Shown piece by piece: positions 14,160 through 60,032 of a DNA stretch of 64,000 nucleotides (position 1 is the first letter of the stretch; each line of letters begins with the position of its first letter). Source of the stretch: Heptranchias perlo (taxonomy: Eukaryota); NCBI RefSeq assembly GCF_035084215.1, contig NC_090352.1, forward strand, positions 30,690,001 through 30,754,000. The letters are read 5' to 3'. The notes under the pieces are model-generated. The model searched no databases. It saw nothing but the letters and a program-made list of their open reading frames with translations, and was not told the DNA's origin. A program made the position numbers and the translations under genes.

Positions 14160-14484
14160 ATGGCACATTCAGAAAGACTCCTCCAGACCTGCCGGGTCGA
14201 GCTCATCAGCAGCCTGTCTAGGAACATTCCCACTTTACTGGATTATATGCAAGCTGAAGAACTGGTGACCAGTGAAGACAAGCAAATCGTCAATTCCAAG
14301 ATTACAGACACGGAAAAGGCACGCGAGATCCTGGACCTGGTACAGGCCAAAGGTGAAAAGACTTGCCAGCTGTTCATAGATCTGCTGCTGAAGTTACATA
14401 AAATCTGGCCTGATCAGGTCTCGCTCTTTGGTCAATTCATTGAATATTTGAGACCCAACAGTGAACTTCAGAAATACACCACAG
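14160..14484 (+). CDS. NOD-like receptor, coding exon 1: CARD domain
   Basis: Kozak acaATGG. MAHSERLLQTCRVELISSL...EKAREILDLVQAKGEKTCQLFIDLL is a CARD pattern. Donor ag|gtatgt at 14485, phase 1. Possible upstream acceptor cactag| at 14106. Confidence 0.88.
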
Positions 14485-17400
14485 GTATGTTAAGTTTAAG
14501 ACTTTGGGGACGTTTGCCTGAGGTAGTTTAATTCCTTGGAGGTAATTCTGCAACCTAGGGCCCCACATTTCTTCAGAGACTGGGTGTCCATGGCAGCGTA
14601 GATATAGCAGTCTCTCGCTGGAAAACATTTGGACATATAACCAGCTCTGTTGCAATGGACATTGGGCTGTATTTGAGACTTGGTATGAAAGTGCAAGTCG
14701 AGTTACTGATGCACGTTCAAGTCTCAAACTGGAACAAGTGAAGGTTTTGCTCCAGCGTTAGCGCCAATGGCAGCAGGAACACTGTAGAGCTAAAATCTTC
14801 ATTATATATAGTATCATAACATAGCATTATAGTATATTACAGCAAAGAAGGAGGTCATTCAGCCCATCATGCCCTTACCGGCTCTTTGAAAGAACTATCC
14901 AATTAGTCCCACTCCCCTGCTCTTTCTCCATAGCCCTGTAAATTTTTTCCCTTCAAGTATTTATCCAATTCCTTTTTGAAAGTTGTTATTGAATCTGCTT
15001 CCACCGTCCTTTCAGACAGTACACTCCAGATCAGAGCACCTCTCTGCCTCTGGTTTTTTTGTCAGAAGTCAATTGCCAGAAGGGTGGTTCATTTGGATTT
15101 CCTTGTGTTGGTGTTCTAGATACCCCCCTCTGAAAACAAGACAGAACATTTGTGCAACTACCACCAGCCAAGAGCTGGTGCCAACATGCAGCATGAATGG
15201 TGTTGAAAACTTAAGGGTGACGTTGAACAAGATCTAGGGTAGAGTAGTAGATCTAGGGTAGAGTAGTAGATCTAGCACTCAATTGCTGCAGTACAGCAAT
15301 CAACAAAGCAAGTACAATGCCAAACTAACCAGAAACAGTCGAGTACAAGTTATTTTCTTGTTGGGAATTTGTACCAAGAGAAGAAAGAATGAACATTTTG
15401 GCTGAGTAACTTTTCGCTCTGTGACTGATGCCAATTTTACAACAGCCTGACTCCAAGGCCACTCCACCAGAGCAGAGCAAGCTGCATTTCTGAGAGATCA
15501 AAAGCGTTGATTTTTCTTTTTTAAGTTGGTGCCTAATTATTTTGTGACAAAAACTTCCATTTTGCTGCCAATACTAAGGTTTTGTACTGGGGTCCATGCT
15601 AGGCCTGAATTAATGGAAAATTAATGCATGTTTGTAGCTTAACCTGCATCAGTAGTCATGCTGTTATTACAGGTTTCCAGAATTTGCAGTTATTTTTGTC
15701 ACCATATTATTTGCAGTTCCCTCACTAAGAAAGAAACCATCCAATGCTACCCACTATCAGACAATAACAGGCATTGCTTATATGATTCCTTCACTATTAC
15801 AGTAACCACATAATACACCCTCCCACAGCTTATGTAGGTGGCCTTGTAAAGAGGCTCTATTTTGCTACAAACAAGAAGTGAAGAACTGAGTAACTCATTT
15901 AGTAAGATATCAGATAAAGTGAACAGAAGTAGCAGCATGATCGCCACAGAATACTTGATTACTGATACAAGTTAAGTTATGAGCAGGCATTAAATTGGAA
16001 GAAGGAAAAAAGGGAAGAACAAACTTACATTTATATTGTGCCTTTCACAACCTCAAGACGTACTTTTGAGGTGTAGTCACTGTTGTAATGTATTTTAGGG
16101 AAAATACCCCAGTACGTGCTGATACTCAGTAAAAACAGTCAGCCTTTCAAATTTGATTGTAAAAAATATTTTAAATGTTAGTGTTACTGTATCAGAAATG
16201 TTTTTAAGATTCATTTTTATTTGTTCATAATTTTGCCCCTGCCACCTTTGCCCACTCGTCCCTGACAGATTCATTAGGGATGGTTGTCCAAGTACATACC
16301 AGCAGTGGAGAACTTTGCCAGCTGCCAACAGATATCAGAAAGTCCCAGGCCTGCTGCCCAAGATTTTCTGCCCATTGAGTGGGCACTGTGCCTGCAATTT
16401 TCCAGTATGCGCTGGTGGTGGGTGAGGTTCCCTGTTGCTGGCTTGCCCTAGGAAAATTGCCCTCACTCTATTAATGTACAACTTATATCACCAAACATGC
16501 AAGCCAAAAATTCCTCCATTTAAACAGAACTCAATATGGCGGAGATGGTGACTGAAAATGGCAAATTTCTGGAACTTTCACAACTAGGACCGAATTGTCT
16601 ACGAATAAAGGACAATTCCATTCAGGACATCTTTTTGAATACTTCCAGAGTTGTATGCTTCTTGGAAATTTCGGGATAGATTTTCCTGTTCCACTACCTT
16701 GATATTTTGGACCACCTGGATACAGTGAATACGGGAAATTGGGCAGGGTGGATAGCTCCTGTGGAAACACACCCGATTTTCAGTCTGTTCATTTAAACGG
16801 GCGGAAAATCGGGCAGGCTGTCTCTCTGGCATGTGATCCTCTCTGCCTGATTTTCCTCCACTCGCTGTACCCAATTGATCCAAAACGCCCTGGCACAGGA
16901 ACAAGAAGACCTTTCCCTATATCTTTCAAATGGTTTAGTTAAAAAAAAACAACAGATTTAAAATGGCTCTCTCAACTTTAATCAGTCTCGTTGTGTACAG
17001 ACAAGAAGCTACTCACAACATTGCCCCTTTAAAGTTCGATATTAACCTCCCCTTTGCGAAACATAATCTGTTTTTATCAACTTGAGATGGTAAAAATGGC
17101 TGCTTTATATGCTGTTAACTAGTATTCATTTTCTCAAGGTGGTGCAGGTCACTTTTCCAATGGAGTCCTCACATATAGATTCGCAAACCTGTAAGTCCCC
17201 CTCTGGTGAGATCCCGTTCCATGGTGGGGAGGTGCTGGGTGAGAGTCAGCACTTAGCACCAAGAAGGGAGGGAGAACTGGAAAGGCTGGTCAGCCTGAGC
17301 ACCTTCAATTGCCAGTTACAGAATGGCATTGGCAGAAACCTGGAAAACAGGTAACCTGTCTGTCTTCTAGAAAAATATTGGGTATGGCATCAGGGAAGGG

Positions 17401-17691
17401 GAATGAAGAAAGAGTTATTTCACCAGAAAAAAATTCTGATAATTTCATGTCATCTGACAACCAAATTTAGATAAGCTAATAAAAAGGAAGACAAATATTG
17501 CTTAACCCTGAAGTACATTTCCCTACTGTTGGTTTCACATGAAGTCAAAGGTTCCTCTCTCTTCTTTTCCCATCATAAGTAATTTTCAATGGTAAGACAC
17601 ATCAACTCCCTTCTAACTGGTTCGAGCTTGGGCTAAAAAAAAAAGGCTATTTCTACAGGACAGGGCTGTCATCAATCTTGCTCCTTTTCAG

Positions 17692-19321
17692 AAATCAGTT
17701 CAGTTGCAGAAAAGAACAGAAATCACATCAAGAAAAAACTTGTGACGGAAGAATTCATTCTACATTGCAATTACATCCCAGTGGAGCTGGTTGAACGCCA
17801 GCATCGAACCAAAGTGCCCGTGGAAAAGAAAATAAAGGTACAAGAGATGTTCACCTCAGCTTCTTCAAGGGGAGATGGGATTCCTAGACTTGTCATCTTA
17901 GAAGGACATCCAGGAACTGGAAAAACGACATTAGTAAAACACATGATCTCTGTTTGGGCATCATCTCAGCTGTACACAAATTTTAAGTTTGCATTCTATT
18001 TCTTCTTGGAGAGGGTGAGCCCCGATATTGACACCAGCCTCGTGGAATTGATCAAGACATTCTGTGACCATCTGAACTCTGAAGAGGTCCTCTGTGCTTT
18101 AGAGGACGATGCTGTTTTGCTGATATTTGATGGAGTACAAGATTTTCTCAAACCCCAAAACACAAGGGAAAGAGTTAAGAGTTGCAATCCATTACAGCCA
18201 ATGCCAATGAGCAAATTAATGGACCATTTGATTCGAGGCTCATTGCTATCAAACTGTTTCATTTTGCTTTTGACTAGACCTGAGGGGGTCTCACATATCC
18301 CAATGCCACAGGACGGCAGGTTAGTGGAAATAAAAGGGTTCTCCGATACTTTAAAACTCAAATTTTTGGGGCAGTCCATTGATGAGGCGCAGAGAAATTA
18401 CGTCGCAGGAGACCCGTTGTTGTGGGACATGTGCAGCATCCCTGCTTTCTGTGTGTTCCTACACTCCACTGTCCTCACCTACATCCATGAGTTATGCGCC
18501 ATCACCACATCGGAAATTCTGCTACACTATTTTAGATATTTCATCGCACACCATGTCAGTCCTTACAGATACCAGAATGAGGACCAAACATTTCTACAGA
18601 TGCACTGCATTTTGAAAACACTCTCAAGCGAGCTCCTCAGCATTGGCAAGGAGGCTTTACGGAGCCTGGGAGGAGAGCTGTCCCCTTCGGTGAAGAGTAT
18701 CCCTGACATCCCATTCCACGAATCCAGCATCACTGCCAATTTTGTGACAAGGCATTTAATACGAGATTCATTAACTTTTATAAGAGCAGATTATGCTTTC
18801 CCGTGCAAAGCTCTGCAAGAATTTTTTGCATCCGTTGATCTGACTCGTGAAATTGTCTCAAGGCGAGATAGTGATGATTACTCAGGCATCGTCTCAGCAG
18901 CTACAAGCAACCTCATCGCACTTATCTGTGGATTCCTCTCCACAAGCTGTGGCCACTTGCTAGAGGGGCTCTTGGACTTTGAACATAGTTCAGCAGATGA
19001 TAACTTCTGTAGCTTTTTGCTGCAGTGGATAAAGAGGAGCCACGATGAAGCATCTGATGAAAATGAAGGAGACAAACTCTTCGCCGTGATAAAGTGCCTC
19101 CATGCTAACTCTGCAGTGCAGCTGATTCCGAACTTTTTTAGTCGTGTAGGATCACTGATTGACCTCAGTCTTGTTCGCCTGTCGCCTGCAGACTGTGCTA
19201 CCATTGCTTATATCTTACAAAATACCAAAGACACGACACATTTGGATCTGTCAGAGTGCAAGATAGGTCCAGAAGGCTGTGCAGCCCTTTCATCGGGGAT
19301 AACGCACCTGCACTCACTCAG
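17692..19321 (+). CDS. NOD-like receptor, exon 2: NACHT, helical/WH domains, first LRR
   Basis: Acceptor ctccttttcag|, phase 1, in frame with ORF 17742..19325. Walker A GHPGTGKT (17904), Walker B LLIFDG, sensor-1 LLLTRP, CSIPAFC, QEFFAS, LRR LDLSECKIGPEG. Donor ag|gtaaga, phase 2. Confidence 0.95.
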
Positions 19322-20084
19322 GTAAGAAGTTTTTCAGAATTACCAACTTTGTTCTTGGTCAGTGTTGACTGACTGAGATGTGCAAATAATCCAGGGGCAT
19401 GATGGCTCCTGCAGTGGGGGAAAGGGAGAAGAGACATTGTCTGGAGACAGCAAGCCAGGGCTGAAGAGTAGCAATGTGGGGATGGATGAATGTTCTGGAG
19501 TGTTACTTTAGGGATCAGGAAGTACTTGTATAGAGATTTCCCCTCAGGCGATTAAGCGGGTACACTAGGGCCTTTAATAAGGTAGATTGATCTGTGGAAG
19601 GAGCTTACTTTGATGAGCTTAATGGCCTTGTCTTGTTCCATGCTTTCTTATGTTCTGATAGGGAACTTTGCTCCTGCAGCAGGAGTGTCTGTCTAACATT
19701 TCAAATTATGGCCTTCTATAGATGTACTGTATTGCAGAGGAGGTCATGCTGTTTACACAAACCTGATTCAAATCATGGCGATTTGCAGCCAGCGTAAGGA
19801 CAGCAATAAACAGTCACAGCCGAGTAAACAGGCTCAGGCCATCTCCACAGCACCCACAGAAATATGGATGGTTGGATACAAGCAATGTAATTTAATTAGA
19901 AATACTGTAACAGTACATCTCAAAGTGGTTTATGAATTTCATCAAAACCTCAAGTTTGAATTACAGCCTTTTACTCACCCTCTAATGATCTCAGTAAAGT
20001 GAAAACAATACCCAAGAACAGTTTAAAAATAGTGCTGCAATAACAAATATTGAAATTCATTTGCCAATTATGCGCCCATTATGC

Positions 20085-20770
20085 AAGTTTACTAATATCT
20101 TCCTATATTTTGTCGCAGTCCTCCTCGGTATTAACTATACCCCCCAATTTGGTGTCGTCCGCAAATTTTGAAATTATTCTTCCGATTCCCAAGTCCAAAT
20201 CGCATGTGTAAATGGTGAACAACAGTGATCTCAGCATCAATTCTTACCACTTCCCACCTTTTGCCAGTCTGAGTAACTACCTTTAACATCAACTCTCTGT
20301 TTTCTGTTTTGTAGCCAGTTTGCTATTCATTCTGCTACTTGTCCCCTGACTCCACACACTCTGACCTTAGTCAGGAGTCCACTATACGGTACCTTATCGA
20401 AGGCCTTCTGAAAATCCAAATATATTACATCTACTGCATTAGCGCGGATGCAACCCATCCAGACCAGGGGTTTTATCCTCTCTACGTTTGAATCGTTTAT
20501 CAATTATCTCCCCCCTTTCTATCTTAAATGTCTTTATATCTTTTTTGATCTCTTCTTCTAATGTCATGCCCACCCTGTTAGTCTCCCTGGTAAATACTGA
20601 GGCAAAGTAATTATTTAATATTTCTGCCATTTCGCTGTCATTACCTGTGAATTTATCGTGTGTATTCCTTGGTGGCCCTATCCCTATCCTGATTTTTCTT
20701 TTGTTATTTATGTGTCTGTAGAATACTTTACTGTTTCTTTTTATATTCCTTGATAATTTAATTTATTAAC
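20085..20770 (-). mobile_element. CR1 ORF2 fragment with internal deletion
   Basis: Minus strand encodes MAEILNNYFASVF...KTPGLDGLHPR, joined at about 20440 to RT segments (DFQKAFDKVP, FADDTK). Confidence 0.85.
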
Positions 20771-20838
20771 TCTACTCCCCGGGGATTTGGCACAGTTTGT
20801 GCAGTGCTGTCAAACCAATTACTTTCTTCTTTTTACAG

Positions 20839-20922
20839 ATTACGCAGCAACTCATTGGGTAACGTGGGGATCTCTTGTCTAGCCCAGATGTTATTGGAGA
20901 ACACCACAATCAGGGAGGTTGA
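20839..20922 (+). CDS. NLR exon 3: 28-aa RI-type LRR
   Basis: tttttacag| and |gtgagt, 84 nt, phase 2-2. LRSNSLGNVGISCLAQMLLENTTIREV. Confidence 0.92.
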
Positions 20923-22394
20923 GTGAGTACCAGTCTCCGCCACACACTCATCTTCATCCACCCTCCTTTAAAAGCAGTGACTGACACTGACATATGGTTT
21001 CAAGCGCACTAGAAATCCTCTTTTACGTTGACCAAGTGGCCATACTTTCATGTGTGAGTCCAGAAAGGTTATTCAACCATGGGGAGAGGGGGGCTGCATG
21101 ATAACCAAGTATGGTTCTGTCCTCACACCATTGTCCACACACGTTGTACCAGCCTTATATAGAATGCTGCAAAATGTATTCAGACTGTAAACGGTGAAAA
21201 TATAATTTGTGCCTCTTTGAAAAAAGATTAAAGTTCCTTTACGTCACTTGCCATTTGTGACACTGCCTCTAGAGAGAGAGAGAGAAAGAGAATAAGAGAT
21301 ATAGATGAAAACACAGCAGTAGGCACGTCTCCATATACAGTATAATCCAAATTTTGCTGTGTAATCTAATGTTTGTCCTCAGGAGCACAGGGGACGGAGT
21401 AGCTATGCTGAGCGATACAGTTACCTTGGGAATTTACTGCAGTGTAATAGTTTCTTTCAGAGGACCAGTAAACAATGTGCTTTAGCAAGCAATATTGGTT
21501 TATCTAATTTTTAACACGGATACCTCCTATCGCTTGCATACAAATGGTGAGGGTTTTTAAACCATCCACATTTGATTTGAAAACCTCCCAGACAGCAACG
21601 GATAATCAGTAAATTTGCCAGAATGAGCAGCAAAATGGTGATTCAAACTGAGAGGGGGGGAAAGAAAACAGGCCAAATAAAAACAGAAACCACTTGAAAT
21701 ACACAACAGGCCCGCAAGTGTCACGAAAGAAAAAAGATTGTTTATGGTTTCGGTGACTCTTAAATTGCCAATTATCTTCTAGCAACCACCAGCATAACAA
21801 CATCTGATGTGTGTTTAAACAGAGAATCATTATTGTCTCTGATTATTCTCTTTTTCTTTCTTTAACCTATTTCCCCTCCCCTCGTTCCCTTGATGTCCCT
21901 ATCGCCATGCCCGAAAGTTGTCGGCTTGTGGCCTCCAGCTGTGGAGCTGGCTGCTGGGTGGGTATACGAGAGCAGCCTAGGGTGGGGGACTCTCCCTCCG
22001 ATCTCTCTCCCCTCTCACGAGGAAGCCCCCCGACCGTCTCTCTGTTGTCTCTTCACAGGAACGTAGCCGAAGCTGGTAACTCAGTGCGTGGAAAATTGGA
22101 GGCACGCACGCGCCATTAAATTCCCCGGAGGGGGAGGTTCTCCGATCGTCTGCCGTGACTTTGGCGGAACATTCGGCGGAAACCCCCCTGGAGAAAGGCA
22201 GCGGCCAAAGTAGCTCGAAGCCATGCAAACCAGAATGCTGGAGCTTCCGTTCCTGGTGTGTGCTGAACAGTTGGAGGTGCCTCAGTGCCTCAGAGCGAAG
22301 TAGGGAGAAAATATAAAAAACAGCCAGGGTTCCTGCTCTCGATCGTGTCTGGTGACTCCTACTGGAAATTGCACATCTGACCATCACGTGAAAT

Positions 22395-22705
22395 CAACTT
22401 GCATTTATAGAGCCCCTGTAACGTGGTGAAACGTCCCAAGGCACTTCACAGGGGCATAATCAGACATAATCAGGGGCACCAAGCCAAAGAAGTAGACATT
22501 AGGACAGGCGACTAAACGCACAGCCAAAGAGGTAGGTTTTAACGAGCTTCTTAAAGGGGGCGAGAGAGGCGGAAAGGTTTGGGGAGGGAATTCCAGAGCT
22601 CGGGGCTTAGACAGCTGAAGGCACGACCGCCAATGGCGGGGCGAAGGAAGTCACGGATCCGCAAGAGGCCAGAATTGGAGGAACACAGAGTTCTCAGAGG
22701 GTTGT
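22395..22705 (-). mobile_element. L2-clade LINE 3' fragment
   Basis: Reverse complement ends ...ctataaatgcaagttg. Similar to the L2 3' region at 63330-63605. Confidence 0.65.
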
Positions 22706-22714
22706 CGGGCCCCC

Positions 22715-22888
22715 CCCCCCACAGTCGAATAGCCTGCTGACACTCTGGGGTAATTATCTGAGTTGGCGATCATGCCCCCCACAGTCGAATAGCCTGCTGA
22801 CACTCTGGGGTAATTATCTGAGTTGGCGATCATGCCACCCACAGTCGAATAGCCTGCTGACACTCTGGGGTAATTATCTGAGTTGGCA
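22715..22888. repeat. 60-bp tandem repeat x3
   Basis: acagtcgaatagcctgctgacactctggggtaattatctgagttggc recurs at 22721, 22781 and 22841. Confidence 0.95.
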
Positions 22889-23955
22889 GCCTTGCCCTCA
22901 TGCATTGCACGTTGGAAATTCAGGCACGCACTGCCCTCGATTTCCCATCCATTTTGGGTAGAGCCAAGTGTCACAAGACCAGATTTCTGTTATACACCGA
23001 TGGTGAGCAAGGCTCCCTGCCGGTAGTAAGAACGTGGAAAATGACCCCCTCGTTGTCTATGCTCGCAGGTGATATCGGAGGGGTGCCAGGTCTTGTGGAA
23101 AAGGGTGGCCCAGCAGGAGAGAAGGAAGCAACACAACAATGAATGAAAACCGGGGCTAACGGGTTAAACCAGTCCGAGCCACTTGTTTGACATCACTGGC
23201 TGCGACAGGACGGGATTAATAATGTTAAGTTGGAACAGGAGACACCATCCCTGGCACTTTACGCAGCTTCTAATCACATTAATCTGTCTATAATTGACAT
23301 TGATGCCTTTTTGTCCGTTACGATTGTGAAATGTATGCTGGGACAATATGATTAAGTCAGTAAACTGACTCGATAATTGATCGCCTAAATATGACAGTTA
23401 GAGTCCCACTTCTGCTGGGCCATTTACAAATTCCTATTAAAATGTAAAGTAAATATAGAATAATCAATGTGTAGCAGTGAGTTTCAAGGCACTTAGACAA
23501 TCAAGGTTATCTGCTGATATGGTTAGTGGCTTACATAGACCAATGCATTTCTGGGTAATGGTTTAAAAGGTGCTCGTCTCACTGAGGGTTCTCATCATCT
23601 GAACTCAAGATTGGACCACATTCAAGGCTGATTTCATTTTAAGCAGGGGCTTTATTCAGTTGTAGGTGTCCTTTTAGAGCTGGTAAATGTTCTCTGTGCC
23701 ATTTGCAACTCTCAGTGAGCTCACGTCATTTATGTGCGATGACTCCAACTGATTCTCCTTCCGTCCCGGGCGATCTTAAACCTTATTTTAGCTCAATTTA
23801 TAATTCATAACCCAACCCCGTCCATGGTAAAATGGTTGAAAATCCCAAAGCGACACAAGTGCATTAAAGCTATTGACGTTCCATTATTGTTTTGCAACAA
23901 GCTTTTCAATATATAACTGGAAACACTGCTACTTCAAAAATGACAGTGACACCGT

Positions 23956-24134
23956 GGGGGTCAATTTTAACCGAACCCACCCGTCGGGAAAGTGACGGGA
24001 TCAGGTGCAACACTGGTTTTACACCCCGCCCGATTTCACTCTCCACTGAAGTCAACGGAGGGTAATTTCAGGCGGGGGCAGAAAACTCGATCCCATCAGT
24101 TTCCCGGCGGGCGGGTTCCGTTGAAATTACCCCC
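23956..24134. mobile_element. MITE with terminal inverted repeats (PIF/Harbinger-like ends)
   Basis: ggggtcaattttaac...gttgaaattacccc, with internal inverted symmetry. Confidence 0.55.
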
Positions 24135-24544
24135 TCCTCGTGTGTCAGGAATAGAATCAGGTTTCTGCAGCAGAGCTTGTGGTCGGAATTCCATGGTTCC
24201 TGGACGGCTGACAGTGACCCCTCCACTTCTCCCTGAATTCTGGCTCTGTGATTAGCAGGAGCACAGGGACAGAGGTGATGATGTAAACACACAAACCAAT
24301 GTATTACTGAAATGGACCCAGGCTACAGGAACATTTCCATTATGGATGATGCCGGGTTTATCGATTTTAAGGCTTCTAACCCTATGTCAGCACATGACTG
24401 CAACGGTGAGAACTGCACTGGGTTTCTCATACCTTAATAATGATCCACATTGTAGCTTTAAAAATACAAGTGAGTTGATGTAGAAACTATCCTTTTAACA
24501 GTTAAGTAATCGGTAATTAAGTTTCTCTTTTTCTTTCTGGACAG

Positions 24545-24628
24545 ACTTCAGTGGAATGGCATAGGAGACAAAGGAGCGAAAGAAATAGCAGCCGTTATAG
24601 AACGGAATTGTACCCTCACTTATATTGG
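24545..24628 (+). CDS. NLR exon 4: 28-aa LRR
   Basis: ttctttctggacag| and |gtttgt, 84 nt, phase 2-2. LQWNGIGDKGAKEIAAVIERNCTLTYIG. Confidence 0.92.
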
Positions 24629-25556
24629 GTTTGTATAATACTATCACCTTTAACTAGAGCGCACAATGCTAGTGTTAACAGTGGCTGCGGAATCGCAGTG
24701 ACCTCCTGTTGGAAGCACTTTTTCTGCAGCTTGGGGCCCCGTGAAAGAAACATAGGTCACCTTGATGATCAAGTGTTCTATTGATTATTGATTGCACTGT
24801 TTAGAATCATAGAATTATAACAGCACAGAAGGAGGTCATTTGGCCCATCCAGCCGGTGCTGGCTCTTTGTAAGAGCCGTCCAATTAGTCCCACTCCCCCG
24901 CTCTTTCCCCATAGCCCTGCAATTTTTTCCCCTTCAAGTATTTATCCAATTCCTTTTTGAAAGCCACGACTGAATCTGCTTCCACCGCCCTTTCAGGCAG
25001 CACATTTCAGATCATAACTACTCGCTGCGTAAAAAAGTTTTTCCTCATGTCAACTTTGATTCTTTTGCCAATCACCTTAAATCTGCGTGCTAGGACCCAG
25101 ATCGCATGGGTATTTGCCTAAAAAGAAGGATGTCTGAGGAACATCAAATCGACTGAGGTCAGTGCAAAGATACAATGAATTACTAAAATTGACCATCTGG
25201 TCGAACATGCTCTCGGGTTCTTGCACAGTAATGCACAAGTACCTGAGTTTGTTTAAGTTGCTTTTAGTCAAAGGGCAGCGTAAACTCATTATTAGGGCCA
25301 GTGGTCTTGTTTGGCCCAATATCCTGCAACAAATCAAATTCCTTTATTTATTCCATGTAGTTTGATTTGATACCCAAGTGCTGCAATGTCCTGGAGACAG
25401 TCTATATGTCAAATTCTGAGTGGATCCGACTGATATCAAATCAACCGCTCTACTTATTATTGACTGGACCTTCTACCCAATCGTGCCTTAGTGCCAGTCT
25501 TCCATTTTCAGCATTAAAGGAGGAAGAAAACAAAAATGTTCAATAGTGTCCTATAA

Positions 25557-25898
25557 AGGGCATGGTGGCCATGATGGTCCATGATGGGCACAATGTTCAT
25601 GATGGGCACAATGGTCCATGATGGGCACAATGTTCATGATGGGCACGATGGTCCTTGATGGGCACGATGGTCCTTGATGGGCACGGTGGTCCATGATGGG
25701 CATGGCGGTCTATGATGGGCATGGTGGTCTATGATGGGCATGGTGGTCTATGATGGGCATGGCGGTCTATGATGGGCATGGTGGTCTATGATGGGACATG
25801 ATGGGCACGATAGTCCACGATGGGCATGGTGTCCTATGATGGTCTATGATGGGCATGGTGTCCACGCTGGGTATGGTGTCCACGATGGGCATGGTGGC
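25557..25898. repeat. About 20-bp degenerate minisatellite
   Basis: Repeated atgatgggca(t/c)ggtggtc(c/t). Confidence 0.9.
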
Positions 25899-25942
25899 AC
25901 AGCACAATGGAATTCCAGTAGGCGGTGCCATCGAGTATTATT

Positions 25943-26436
25943 AAAGAAAGAACTTACATTCCTATCGTGCCTTTCACAACCTCAGGACATCCCAAAGCGC
26001 TTTGCATCCAGTGATGTACCTTTGACATGTAGTCACTGTTACAATGTAAAAAAGCACAGCAGCCAAGTTCTGCAGAGCAAGATCCCAAAAACGACAATGG
26101 GATCAATGACCAGATAATCTGTTTTTGGTGGTGTTCGTTGAGGGATAAATTTTAGCCAGGACACCGGGGAGAACTCCCCTGCTCTTCTTCAAATGGTGCA
26201 ATGGAATATTTTACGTCCACCTAAGAAGCCAAATAGTGGCTCGGTTTAATGTTTCATCCAAAAGACGGCACCTCCGACAGTGCAGCCTATGGACGGTGCT
26301 GCCTTTATACATTTTAAGAAAGTTGTCAGAACAATTTGACTGCGAGGGTAACTAGATTATGTGCTCAAGTCTCTGCAGTGAGGCTTGAACCAATGACCTT
26401 CTGACTCAGAGGCGAGAGTGCAAATGCACTGAGCCA
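25943..26436 (-). mobile_element. Deu-domain SINE
   Basis: Reverse complement of the 4638-5100 family, including the tRNA head. Confidence 0.85.
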
Positions 26437-26826
26437 ATTATGTGGGTTAATAATCGAAACTAATGCTTACTTAGTCAGTAATTCCCAGCCTTGCTACCTC
26501 TACTACCAAGGAGGACAGGAGCAGCAATATCATGAGAACACCATGACCTTCAAATTCTCCTCCAAGTCACACACCATCCAGATTTGGACATATAATCGCT
26601 GTTCCTTCATTGTTGTTAGGTAGGGATTTCTAGGATTTTGACCTAATTCTGGAGTGGGTGCATCCTAACCGCAAGGACTACAGTGGTTCAAGGCGGTGAC
26701 CCATCACCTTTTCAGGGCAACTAGGGATGGGCAATAAAATGCAGTCTTGCCAGCATTGCCTGTATCATGTGATCAAAGAAAAGAAAATTCCCACACATGG
26801 TGAATTCCAAATCTTGGTCATTGGAA

Positions 26827-26956
26827 NNNNNNNNNNNNNNNNNNNNNNNNNNNNNNNNNNNNNNNNNNNNNNNNNNNNNNNNNNNNNNNNNNNNNNNNNN
26901 NNNNNNNNNNNNNNNNNNNNNNNNNNNNNNNNNNNNNNNNNNNNNNNNNNNNNNNN
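26827..26956. other. Assembly gap (130 N)
   Basis: Run of N inside NLR intron 4. Confidence 1.
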
Positions 26957-28019
26957 AGAGGAGAAGGAGAAAAAGAGAGGGAAAGAAAGAGAAAGAGGGG
27001 GAGAGAGAGAGTCAGTCCCCCAAGTCCATTTCCATGCTTTTCCTGGCCATATGTTAGAAAGGGGAGGGAAAAAATTGAAACTAAATAAATAACTTAAAAA
27101 TTGCAAAATGGGCGAACTGAGAGCACGAGATGATGAATAAAATAACACGTTCATGGAGCAAAGACTTGGGTGATTATGTTCTTCCATTCTTGGGATAAGC
27201 AGCAAACTGTCAACAAAGTGCTTGATGGCAAGAGGGTGCGATCAGCACATGTGAAGAGCCATAGTGGCGACTCCATGATCTGGACAGAATGGATTGACGG
27301 AAAACCATGGGCCCGCAGCAACGCCTCACGCCCACAGTTTTCCGAGAGGTGCTCCCTGTGAGTACCGCTCCCTGCTGGGAACGATAGCTCATGGAATCAC
27401 CTACATGTCTGAAAACACTGCAGCTCTCGGCAACAGAAGCAATGAACACCGAGCACTGTTTAAATGAGACCTACTCTGCCAGCTCACTCAAGAATTCATG
27501 GTTATTTTATTTTGTTGTCCTTGAGGCCATTCACAGCTGTCCTTTGTTTCAATTGACTAAGGCCTCAATAGTCTGCTTGACATTCCTCTGTCCATGAATT
27601 TAGCAGCGGTGCGAACCCATTTATAATAAACAGTTTATAATAAACAAAATCTGCATTAAAGCTGCGGACAGAAGGACATCACGTGAATGCATTCAGCACT
27701 TGGCTGCCAATCTCAGCAGCAGTAAATCCCAGAGCTCATGTCTCCTTCAGGCATAAAGGTGGGGAGTTCAGTGTCTTCAATTTAACCATTGGCGCTTATA
27801 CGTCCTGCTTGATATTCAGTGCCATTGAAGTTAATGGCATGGAGTATTGGACAGGATCTATTACAAGCGCCAGAAACCCGTTTTACGTCCTCGCCCAAGT
27901 CGAATTTTACTGCTTTGGTGTCGTAGTAGATTAACATATACAGCACCACATGCAGCCTCACACAATCTGAAGTAATTTAAATGATCCCTGGCTTTTAAGT
28001 TCTTCTTTGTCGTTAACAG

Positions 28020-28103
28020 GTTGGCAGAGAATATGATTGAAGATGAAGGTGCCTTTTCTTTATCCAAAGCATTAATGTCCAATATAGTTCTTAAACAACT
28101 CAA
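28020..28103 (+). CDS. NLR exon 5: 28-aa LRR
   Basis: ctttgtcgttaacag| and |gtaagt, 84 nt, phase 2-2. LAENMIEDEGAFSLSKALMSNIVLKQL. Confidence 0.92.
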
Positions 28104-28763
28104 GTAAGTGATTGATAAACCTTTCCTCCAGCCACACTCTGTGTGCAGGTTTCCTGCTCTTGATGCTGTATTTATGGGTGATGCTCAATGTGGTGGAGAG
28201 CTTTGAGAACCATAGGTCCAAGGTCACCTGTTCCTTCCAAGCTACACTCACCAGGTCATGTCTCAAATTACTCATATACTGTATCCCAAAATGCAACCCT
28301 CATCCCACCCCACCCCCCCCCCCAAGTTCCTGGTCCGTGACTGATTGGGTTCTGTCGGGTGAAGTGCTCCTATGTTGGGAATAATCTACCAAGATAAATC
28401 ATTGGAGTTGTTCAAAGTACAATTAGATGCCATAATGGCAGAGTTAATGTACTAGAAGGGTGAGCTTCAATGGCCTTGTCCCAAGCCTGATATTACACCC
28501 TCTCAGGAAGGCCGGTAAAAATCACAAGAGTGAACCACCTGAAGCTGCTCTCACTTGCCCCCTAGAGGCTGGCCACAGAAGGGCATCAACGGAGGTTTGT
28601 TGGGAATGGATCACGAGTTAAAAGGATAAAGATAAAGAAAAAAAAATAGAAAAACAAACATATGTAGATCATGGAAATGTTCAATTAGATAATTTTGCTC
28701 TGAGTAATGACATCCTTCGACAGGCTGCAATAATGAAATCTGAATGATATCTTTCTTTGTTAG

Positions 28764-28851
28764 TTTGTACAACAACCACTTTGGGCCTCTGGGGACAGAA
28801 GAAATGATGAAAGTGAAGAGAAAGAAGCTGGATATGATCATCGTGACATGA
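28764..28851 (+). CDS. NLR terminal coding exon
   Basis: ctttctttgttag|, phase 2. (N)LYNNHFGPLGTEEMMKVKRKKLDMIIVT* continues the LxLxxNx(F)GxxG pattern. TGA at 28849-28851. Confidence 0.82.
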
Positions 28852-42837: not shown

Positions 42838-43440
42838 AACAGGCTAATACTGGCAACGAAAGCCTACGACAGGCTAATATTGGCAACGATGGCCTACGAC
42901 AGGCTAATATTGGCAACGATGGCTTACGACAGGCTAATATTGGCAACGATGGCCTACGACAGGCTAATATTGGCAACGATGGCCTACGACAGGCTAATAT
43001 TGGCAACGATGGCCTACCTCAGGCTAATATTGGCAACGATGGCCTACGACAGGCTAATATTGGCAACGATGGCCTACCTCAGGCTAATATTGGCAACGAT
43101 GGCCTACCTCAGGCCAGTATTGGCAACGATGGCCTACCTCAGGCCAGTATTGGCAACGATGGCCTACGACAGGCTAATATTGGCAACGATGGCCTACGAC
43201 AGGCTAATATTGGCAACGATGGCCTACGTCAGGCTAATATTGGCAACGATGGCCTACGTCAGGCTAATATTGGCAACGATGGCCTACGACAGGCTAATAT
43301 TGGCAACGATGGCCTACCTCAGGCTAATATTGGCAACGATGGCCTACGACAGGCTAATATTGGCGACGATGGCCTACGACAGGCTAATATTGGCAACGAT
43401 GGCCTACGACAGGCTAATATTGGCAACGATGGCCTATGAC
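42838..43440. repeat. 30-bp minisatellite, about 20 copies
   Basis: Unit aggctaatattggcaacgatggcctacgac with cctc/cgtc variants. Confidence 0.97.
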
Positions 43441-43748
43441 ATAAGCCCTTCCTATACTTCGGGGGTGGCAGTAAAACTAGTGGTGGGACTTGGAGCCCCA
43501 TTACTTGATGAAGTTGCTTTATTTAACTAATGGCAGTGGGAATTGCACATTCAGACTTTTTTTCCCGCTTTTAAGCTTACCAGTGACGTATTTGCTTTGA
43601 TTTGTTCCTCAGCCTCTTTTTCCCCATTTTGCATCTTTTTAATTTTCTGCGCTCCAGAATTTATTGGCTGTGCCGTTGATTTTCTGCAGCCAGTTACTAC
43701 AATAAACCCTTGGGTAATGAAGAAACTCTTAACTAGTGCAAAATCTGT

Positions 43749-46687: not shown

Positions 46688-46945
<258 letters not shown>

Positions 46946-59514: not shown

Positions 59515-60032
59515 ACTGGAAATTGTACTGATTGCGCCATATCCACTGGAAATTGTACTGATTGCGCCATATCCACTGGAAATTGTACTGACTGCGCCAT
59601 ATCCACTGGAAATTGTACTGATTGCGCCATATCCACTGGAAATTGTACTGATTGCGCCATATCCACTGGAAATTGTACTGATTGCGCCATATCCACTGGA
59701 AATTGTACTGATTGCGTCATATCCACTGGAAATTGTACTGATTGCGCCATATCCACTGGAAATTGTACTGATTGCGCCATATCCACTGGAAATTGTACTG
59801 ATTGCGCCATATCCACTGGAAATTGTACTGATTGCGCCATATCCACTGGAAATTGTACTGATTGCGCCATATCCACTGGAAATTGTACTGATTGCGCCAT
59901 ATCCACTGGAAATTGTACTGATTGCGTCATATCCACTGGAAATTGTACTGATTGCGCCATATCCACTGGAAATTGTACTGATTGCGTCATATCCACTGGA
60001 AATTGTACTGATTGCGCCATATCCACTGGAAA
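59515..60032. repeat. 30-bp minisatellite, 17 copies
   Basis: Unit aattgtactgattgcgccatatccactgga, nearly invariant. Confidence 0.98.

Follow-up and report, generated by a model that had tools for sequence, protein, structure and literature searches.

The window analysed here is a 64,000-nt stretch of the Heptranchias perlo genome. Its forward strand carries a CARD-NACHT-short-LRR gene (14160–28851), in which six predicted GT-AG exons join in frame over 2295 nt to encode 764 aa. The features of the locus are:

14160..14484, + strand: exon 1 (325 nt), start codon and whole CARD in a single exon (aa 1-108), phase-1 donor; the sawshark model P0001 starts identically
17692..19321, + strand: exon 2 (1630 nt), NBD, HD1, winged helix, HD2 and LRR units 1-2 (aa 109-652); AlphaFold model of the ortholog with pLDDT 79
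20839..20922, + strand: exon 3 (84 nt), LRR, missing from P0001
24545..24628, + strand: exon 4 (84 nt), LRR, present in P0001 and P0127
28020..28103, + strand: exon 5 (84 nt), LRR, present in P0001 and P0127
28764..28851, + strand: exon 6 (88 nt), final LRR, basic cap and TGA stop; end identical in P0001 and P0127
28998..29231, + strand: two candidate AATAAA polyadenylation signals (28998 and 29226), by sequence motif
46718..46865, + strand: CCDC92-domain exon of the next gene (57 bits), a synteny marker outside the NLR

All six exon boundaries have AG acceptors and GT donors where expected, with intron phases 1, 2, 2, 2 and 2, and the sole stop codon is the terminal one. Two database models bear on this structure. 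P0001 matches junctions 1-2, 4-5 and 5-6 as well as the last exon, and skips exon 3. P0127, a RefSeq fragment of 96 aa, is identical to residues 669-764 and spans junctions 3-4, 4-5 and 5-6. Together they support four of the five junctions; junction 2-3 is placed by splice signals and frame alone. Between 19322 and 28763 there are three open AG-84nt-GT exons with the LRR Asn motif, compared with none in any of 200 shuffles. The gene span contains one short unreadable stretch, and the exons on either side of it are joined directly in both database models. The GT-AG sites, the frame and the two models thus bear out the preliminary description, which had joined six exons into 2295 nt and 764 aa with no stop. 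Read together, the exons give a single open frame for CARD, NACHT and short LRR, with splicing predicted to proceed as modelled. A promoter motif scan, run without a control, returned only common TATA, ETS and GAS words.

Among the models retrieved for the species, the C-terminal LRR fragment P0127 is the only annotated piece identical to the gene. This would fit a decaying or split gene from which H. perlo makes a short LRR transcript only, as would the lost catalytic residues described below. Such decay is nevertheless very improbable, since the 2295 nt contain no frameshift or internal stop and a full-length ortholog model with 79–86% identity has identical substitutions.

Domain layout, repeats and CARD

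Pfam recognizes the CARD (E 6.6e-15, 55 bits) and the NACHT (E 2.3e-25, above cut-off). The protein has the layout of the NLR family, a NACHT with HD1-WHD-HD2 followed by LRRs, and the N-terminal CARD makes it NLRC type; no PYD was found by Pfam search in the encoded protein or in P0001. By sequence, the gene thus belongs to a familiar class of proteins. The LRR array consists of five regular repeats and one irregular first repeat, so that the short array noted previously stands and the count of about five is corrected. Within the window, an LRR profile derived from other proteins matches only the three internal exons. A single further match to the same profile, located roughly 50 kb upstream of the gene's start, lacks splice sites. 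No additional LRR exon with splice sites was found by this profile across some 0.4 Mb surrounding the gene.

The CARD carries the sequence ILDLVQAKGE, confirming the NOD1-like motif reported before, and its best PDB match is the human NOD1 CARD (38.7 bits, next family 28.7). In a comparison with 28 shark CARDs, two NOD1 copies scored highest (122 and 115), followed by NOD2 CARDa (110). The margin is small, the next score being 103, and a CARD tree gave no resolved placement. In sequence, the CARD is most like that of NOD1. Residues E53, D54 and R69 of NOD1 are required for RIP2 binding (PMC4132792); they align with E39, D40 and R55, all of which are kept, as is D28. Three of the four RIP2-contact residues (E53, D54, E56, R69) are therefore present, while the E56 position is occupied by Gln (Q42). 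The position of N43 is Tyr. In NOD1, N43 and E56 affect signalling more strongly than binding (PMC4132792). A RIPK2 CARD is encoded in the H. perlo genome.

An alignment-based AlphaFold model of the ortholog (pLDDT 79) gave NOD2 and NLRP3 as top Foldseek matches. The best TM score, 0.57, was to the active NLRP3 disk (other listed chains 0.28–0.38); we do not count it as evidence, because the comparison had no control and the predictor may be biased towards open forms of NLRs. A single-sequence fold of P0001 (pLDDT 36) was set aside. The ESM Atlas returned generic NOD1/NOD2/NLRP clusters and no separate cluster for the shark protein. NLRPs of the oocyte lattice are also among the sequence and fold matches. 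Together with the degenerate nucleotide motifs, these would be compatible with a non-immune scaffold, for example a reproductive or structural one like the maternal NLRPs. We consider this improbable: the oocyte-lattice NLRPs rank under NOD2 and NLRP3, and the CARD resembles that of NOD1 and retains its interaction residues.

The nucleotide switch of the NACHT

We compared the NACHT in an alignment of 38 rows. The relevant sites are:

17904..17927, + strand: Walker A GHPGTGKT (K186), intact
18009..18011, + strand: E215 at the NOD2 R334 / NLRP3 R260 position (equivalence from PMC4158908); Arg in 30 of 36 other rows
18129..18143, + strand: extended Walker B DGVQD, D255 kept, Q258 and D259 in place of the usual DE
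18276..18278, + strand: sensor-1 R304, kept
18804..18806, + strand: C480 replacing the ADP-binding winged-helix His (role from PMC4906405); His in 33 of 36 other rows

The preliminary description had called the NACHT divergent on account of its Walker A. This motif is canonical, fitting the GxxxxGK[T/S] consensus, and the shark NOD1 copies likewise end in GKT; it is therefore not the site of divergence. The NACHT does diverge at the extended Walker B, the R334 equivalent and the winged-helix His. K186, D255, R304 and P359 (the GxP proline) are kept, and E215, Q258, D259, C480 and A482 are replacements, of which D259 remains acidic. The NOD2 residues R334, D382, E383 and H603 correspond to E215, Q258, D259 and C480, with the same changes in both sharks. 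Of the 38 rows, only three have changes at every one of the four latch sites, namely the two shark orthologs and NLRX1.

These four sites are, by homology, likely gates of hydrolysis and of the ADP latch. In the closed form of an NLR, the winged-helix His contacts the ADP beta-phosphate (PMC4906405). Changes at NOD2 R334, E383 and T605 are hyperactive, as are NOD1 R237Q, D287E and T519N, whereas NOD1 E288K reduces signalling (PMC4158908); NOD2 H603A has no constitutive activity (PMC4906405). Among human NLRs, several are without the winged-helix His or show a variant extended Walker B (PMC2323615). Such variation would suit an ordinary ligand-gated sensor with rewired chemistry, whose short LRR would recognize a distinct ligand and in which other contacts substitute for the lost latch. 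The LRRs are indeed among the best-conserved parts of the protein (87–89% identity with the sawshark). However, the repeat count is unequal between the two gene models, since P0001 lacks exon 3, and five to six repeats compare with ten in NOD2 (PMC4906405) and 15 in shark NLRC3 (P0033). A ligand-gated sensor thus appears rather unlikely.

Placement among NLRs and distribution

In three trees, built without mammalian NLRP sequences, the NACHT fell outside NOD1/2 and NLRC3 on a long stem, within a supergroup that contains NLRC3. After removal of long rows, a branch with 97/96 support split it from NOD1/2, CIITA and NLRC5. AU tests rejected a grouping with NOD1 (p 6e-15). Rejection was moderate for NLRC3 (p 0.016) and borderline for NOD1+NOD2 (p 0.040), with a long branch involved in both cases. 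A sister position to NLRX1 was not rejected (p 0.41), but this pairing was absent from the free trees and two long branches may attract each other. With 2.2–2.4 changes per site, the stem matches those of NOD1/2, NLRC3 and NLRX1 in depth, so an old lineage is likelier than a recent duplicate.

The gene is single-copy, with a closest paralog of 28–29% identity. It lies between a Rap-GAP gene and a CCDC92-family gene; the exon at 46718..46865 confirms the latter neighbour, previously given as CCDC92B. Among the papers listed in literature searches, none described the gene and none linked a NACHT gene to RAP1GAP2 synteny. NOD1 (three copies, contig C2), NOD2 (C18), NLRC3 (C25) and NLRX1 (C36) occupy separate loci. 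Another CARD-NLR is found on contig C1.

NOD1, which in cartilaginous fishes forms three tandem copies (PMC8455134), shares with the gene the single CARD-NACHT-LRR order, the best CARD match with the E53/D54/R69 equivalents, and 84-nt phase-2 LRR exons. However, the gene lies outside the C2 cluster of three NOD1-type NACHT exons, a phase-0 intron divides the CARD of shark NOD1 while the present one sits in one exon, and the latch sites of NOD1 still carry R, DE and H. NOD2 is the best PDB sequence match and Foldseek match for the whole ortholog, and its CARDa gives the third-best CARD score, but it has two CARDs, its own locus and only about 25% identity in the NBD-HD1 region. NLRC3 also has a single-exon CARD immediately ahead of the NACHT exon and provides the best BLAST matches for that exon among the fetched proteins (about 24% identity). 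True NLRC3, in contrast, is the gene on C25, 90–95% identical to named shark NLRC3, and has canonical latch residues. NLRX1, which is not known to have a CARD, shares Glu at the R334 position, but the other three latch sites are replaced differently, and its NLRX1_C domain (PF21402) was not found in P0001 and has its single genome match at NLRX1's own locus.

The AU tests, the separate loci and the CARD intron difference agree with the earlier statement that this is not a NOD1/NOD2 ortholog; trees, AU tests and loci likewise gave no clustering or synteny with canonical NOD1 or NLRC3. Our best reading from these sequences is that the gene represents an unnamed NLR lineage that fits none of the named families tested. 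Shark NLRs of unclear orthology have already been acknowledged.

The sawshark ortholog P0001 is 79% identical overall, and 70–89% in every shared region (HD1 89%), which argues for constraint. The database labels of the two models, 'NLRC3-like' for P0001 and LRRC74B-like for P0127, are mislabelling. Among 8000 candidate proteins there were four matches, of which only P0001 was close. No ortholog occurred among 5008 shorter proteins, and a CARD-region search of 259 candidates returned only P0001 itself. Whale shark proteins were not among the matches of the homolog searches. The best 150 of 19,211 representative matches were mostly multi-repeat proteins and did not include P0001, so orthologs elsewhere may have been missed; the protein is found only in two sharks, in searches where even P0001 could escape notice. 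The term 'lineage-specific' used before agrees with the two-shark occurrence and not with a recent origin, given the old-looking stem.

Possible function and significance

The NOD1-like CARD, the five to six repeats and the four changed off-switch residues point to a partner-controlled scaffold rather than a ligand-gated sensor. We tentatively favour an unlatched RIPK2-class scaffold of a separate NLR lineage, somewhat short of an even chance. The preliminary description had already proposed RIPK2 signalling or a helper/decoy role, which stay inferences here. Transcribed as modelled, the protein would bind nucleotide (K186, D255 and R304 are kept), while hydrolysis and the ADP latch would be lost through E215, Q258, D259 and C480. 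With both lost, the threshold for assembly would be low, and oligomers could form readily. The CARD would then recruit RIPK2, as we infer from its contact residues, leading to NF-kB output, with control through expression or a partner instead of an LRR ligand. Counting against such a scaffold, the same kind of change can inactivate, as in NOD1 E288K, and NOD2 H603A is not constitutively active.

A possible, though less likely, alternative is a decoy or negative regulator, a non-cycling protein whose NOD1-like CARD sequesters RIPK2 or poisons the oligomers formed by NOD2 and by the three NOD1 copies of the shark. The only other row without all four latch residues is NLRX1, a non-canonical regulator, and the supergroup of the NACHT includes NLRC3, which is inhibitory. 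Extended Walker B changes inactivate NOD1 (PMC4158908), and the two CARD positions that differ, N43 and E56, are those that affect signalling more than binding (PMC4132792). On the other hand, Walker A, D255, sensor 1 and the GxP proline are kept in both sharks, and the conservation of HD1 and the LRRs exceeds the need of a CARD-only decoy.

The scaffold reading can be carried further. The gene might stand for one more ancient NLR lineage of jawed vertebrates, on a par with NOD1/2, NLRC3 and NLRX1 and retained only in squalomorph sharks: a naturally unlatched CARD-NLR with wild-type changes at Blau syndrome/CAPS positions that, independently of ligand, acts as a helper or rheostat in RIPK2 signalling. 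We regard this extended version as unlikely as a whole.

The core set of vertebrate NLRs is regarded as catalogued (PMC8455134). If expressed and functional, the gene would add one more lineage to the ancestral NLR repertoire. It would also amount to a natural experiment: such an NLR tolerates the loss of four residues that, when mutated, cause autoinflammatory disease in humans, and may thus offer a way to test how NLRs are restrained without the ADP latch.

Gene structure, ortholog and locus

The window is vertebrate in character and rich in LINE reverse-transcriptase fragments. All six exons proposed in the preliminary description carry AG/GT flanks, and they join (phases 1, 2, 2, 2 and 2) into a product of 764 aa with a single stop at its end, in which CARD and NACHT both score above the Pfam cut-off.

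Exons of the NLR gene (window coordinates; assigned from AG/GT flanks and frame) and its surroundings on contig C31
14160-14484, +, exon 1
17692-19321, +, exon 2
20839-20922, +, exon 3
24545-24628, +, exon 4
28020-28103, +, exon 5
28764-28851, +, exon 6
C31, 30.39 Mb, minus strand, Rap-GAP gene, upstream neighbour
C31, 30.70 Mb, the NLR gene
46718-46865 (window), +, exon of a CCDC92-family gene, downstream neighbour
C31, 31.36 Mb, CLU-domain exon, beyond the CCDC92-family gene

The intronic span contains three LRR-type exons of 84 nt, compared with none in 200 shuffles. The "about five" repeats expected are indeed five regular ones, but an irregular first repeat comes in addition. Neither tblastn nor a profile made from the LRRs of other proteins revealed an additional spliceable LRR exon or a second NLR in about 0.4 Mb.

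Two automatic gene models, which are not reads, overlap the gene. P0001, a sawshark protein (Pristiophorus japonicus, 734 aa, labelled NLRC3-like) with 79% identity in the NACHT exon, has the same first and last residues and lacks exon 3. Its identity is 86% in the CARD, 79% in the NBD, 89% in HD1, 70% in the winged helix, 74% in HD2 and 87–89% in the LRRs. P0127, a 96-aa RefSeq fragment from Heptranchias perlo labelled LRRC74B-like, equals residues 669–764 exactly. Combined, they contain all junctions but one, that between exons 2 and 3. Decay of the gene is, in our judgement, very improbable. Database searches retrieved no identical full-length annotated protein, so the existing annotation appears to miss the 5' part of the gene. 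Nor did a literature search, which mostly left out subscription papers, find an earlier description.

P0001 and P0127 were the only close relatives in protein searches, and NLRC3 from ten galeomorph shark species is present in the same database. The "lineage-specific" gene of the preliminary description may thus be confined to squalomorph sharks, as these annotated proteins suggest; this is not proof, since even in H. perlo, the source of P0127, most of the gene is missed by annotation, and P0001 is absent from the representative search. Against the 3.25-Gb genome, the NACHT exon gave its self-match and then paralogs of 28–29% identity (80 of 318 candidates scored).

The synteny proposed next to CCDC92B was recovered with the CCDC92-family gene. 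The order Rap-GAP, CCDC92-family, CLU matches what we take to be the human RAP1GAP2-CCDC92B-CLUH block; to our knowledge, the human RAP1GAP2-CCDC92B gap holds no NLR. Directly after the CCDC92-family gene, at least five tandem units (C31, 30.80–30.88 Mb, L036-L040 and L099-L102; 95–99% identical, 16–19 kb spacing) bear minus-strand zona pellucida (ZP-C) exons with Pfam scores below cut-off. A lone cadherin-like fragment (L021:6632-6961, +; Pfam Cadherin_2, 25.8 bits) lies about 107 kb upstream of the start codon, and 30-nt minisatellites of 20 and 17 copies (window 42839-43441 and 59515-60032) produce long open frames.

CARD and NACHT domains

The CARD is NOD1-like, as had been noticed before. 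Among solved structures it matched human NOD1 best (38.7 bits, followed by ICEBERG with 28.7 and RIPK2 with 26.4), and within a set of 28 shark CARDs its top local scores were with NOD1 (122, 115) and NOD2 CARDa (110), the next being 103 and 97; a CARD tree did not resolve its placement. E39, D40 and R55 align with NOD1 E53, D54 and R69, which are required for RIP2 binding (PMC4132792), and Gln and Tyr stand at the positions of NOD1 E56 and N43. The RIPK2 label in the genome rests on a PDB match. That the protein is a RIPK2/NOD decoy is quite possible, if somewhat less likely than the scaffold reading proposed below. Unlike the shark NOD1 CARD, which is split by an internal intron, this CARD has none, so its NOD1 likeness may have been kept from an ancestral CARD type or acquired by domain shuffling; either fits the data. 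In shark NLRC3 (P0033, a protein with 15 LRRs, and relatives), a CARD exon is detectable by Pfam (L158), whereas the mammalian NLRC3 CARD has been called a likely pseudodomain (bioRxiv 10.1101/087908).

The NACHT was described as divergent, which applies to four near-invariant sites but not to Walker A K186, which is kept together with Walker B D255, sensor-1 R304 and the GxP proline P359. The four changes are identical in both sharks.

Altered sites, in an alignment with 36 other rows
E215, NOD2 R334 equivalent, Arg in 30 of 36
Q258, NOD2 D382 equivalent, Asp in 33 of 36
D259, NOD2 E383 equivalent, Glu in 33 of 36
C480, NOD2 H603 equivalent, His in 33 of 36

Elsewhere in the alignment, only NLRX1 departs at all four. 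The Thr supporting the winged-helix His is also replaced, by Ala482. NOD2 R334 and D382 have been equated with NLRP3 R260 and D303, and substitutions of this kind in NOD2 and NOD1 are mostly hyperactive, while NOD1 E288K loses signalling (PMC4158908). The winged-helix His binds ADP in the closed form, H603A is not constitutively active (PMC4906405), and several human NLRs also lack this His (PMC2323615). The ADP latch is likely to be gone, which may raise or lower activity. A rewired ligand sensor seems unlikely to us, and a non-immune scaffold more unlikely still. The predicted model of P0001 (36-row alignment; mean pLDDT 79, pTM 0.73) comprises CARD, NBD, HD1, WHD and HD2, followed by LRRs in a short arc, with NOD2 and NLRP3 at the top of the Foldseek ranks.

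NACHT phylogeny and other shark NLR genes

Three NACHT trees were built: a quick one of 38 regions, a careful one of 22 of those (16 dropped) and a third of 16, from which NLRX1 and the outgroup were left out. The outgroup rows are unnamed proteins taken as invertebrate NLRs, and none of the trees included a mammalian NLRP. In all three, the two orthologs fell outside NOD1/2 and outside NLRC3 (each 100%). They grouped with NLRC3, FISNA-type and expanded shark NLRs and two other CARD-NLRs, with support of 88/88 in the 22-row tree (NLRX1 also inside) and 97/96 in the 16-row tree; the inner order was not resolved. AU tests gave p values of 6e-15 for grouping with NOD1, 0.040 with NOD1+NOD2, 0.016 with NLRC3 and 0.41 with NLRX1. 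In agreement with the preliminary description, the gene is therefore not a NOD1/NOD2 ortholog, and its locus is separate from both. Membership in NOD1, NOD2, NLRC3 or NLRX1 was tried in each case and failed; a sister position to NLRX1 was not rejected. The stem of the two orthologs measures 2.1–2.4 changes per site in all trees. Since the distance between the two sharks in this NACHT is just 0.23 changes per site, the long stem would mean that the lineage is old or that it changed in a burst and then came under constraint.

Other NLR loci in the genome
C2, three NOD1-type exons in tandem
C18, NOD2 and NLRC5
C25, CIITA and NLRC3
C8, NLRC4
C36, NLRX1 (Pfam)

The NLRC3 label is based on 90–95% identity to named shark proteins; the labels NOD1, NOD2, CIITA, NLRC5 and NLRC4 are presumed from motifs and architecture. 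The three NOD1-type copies (L076-L078, C2:18.53-18.65 Mb) are identical in NBD-HD1 over about 250 aa and divergent in HD2, which suggests gene conversion; three NOD1 copies, the same number, are described in PMC8455134. L055 and L056 (C18:36.97 and 37.00 Mb) represent a CARD-NACHT gene that was duplicated recently, belongs to no named family and sits on a long branch of its own, close to the expanded shark NLRs. Another, single-copy CARD-NACHT gene (L066, L143; C1:196.53 Mb) has motifs of canonical form, and its family is not clear from the tree. Near-identical NACHT genes are greatly expanded on C1370, C1349, C1317, C1445, C1488 and other contigs (342 candidates at first look), resembling the expansion described in the whale shark.

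Proposed function

We tentatively prefer an unlatched scaffold to the decoy, sensor, non-immune scaffold and decay. Such a protein would bind nucleotide and hydrolyse it poorly, would assemble at a low threshold and could recruit RIPK2, with its expression level or a partner presumably setting the limit. The gene itself is a real, intact and mis-annotated NLR with an unusual combination of parts.
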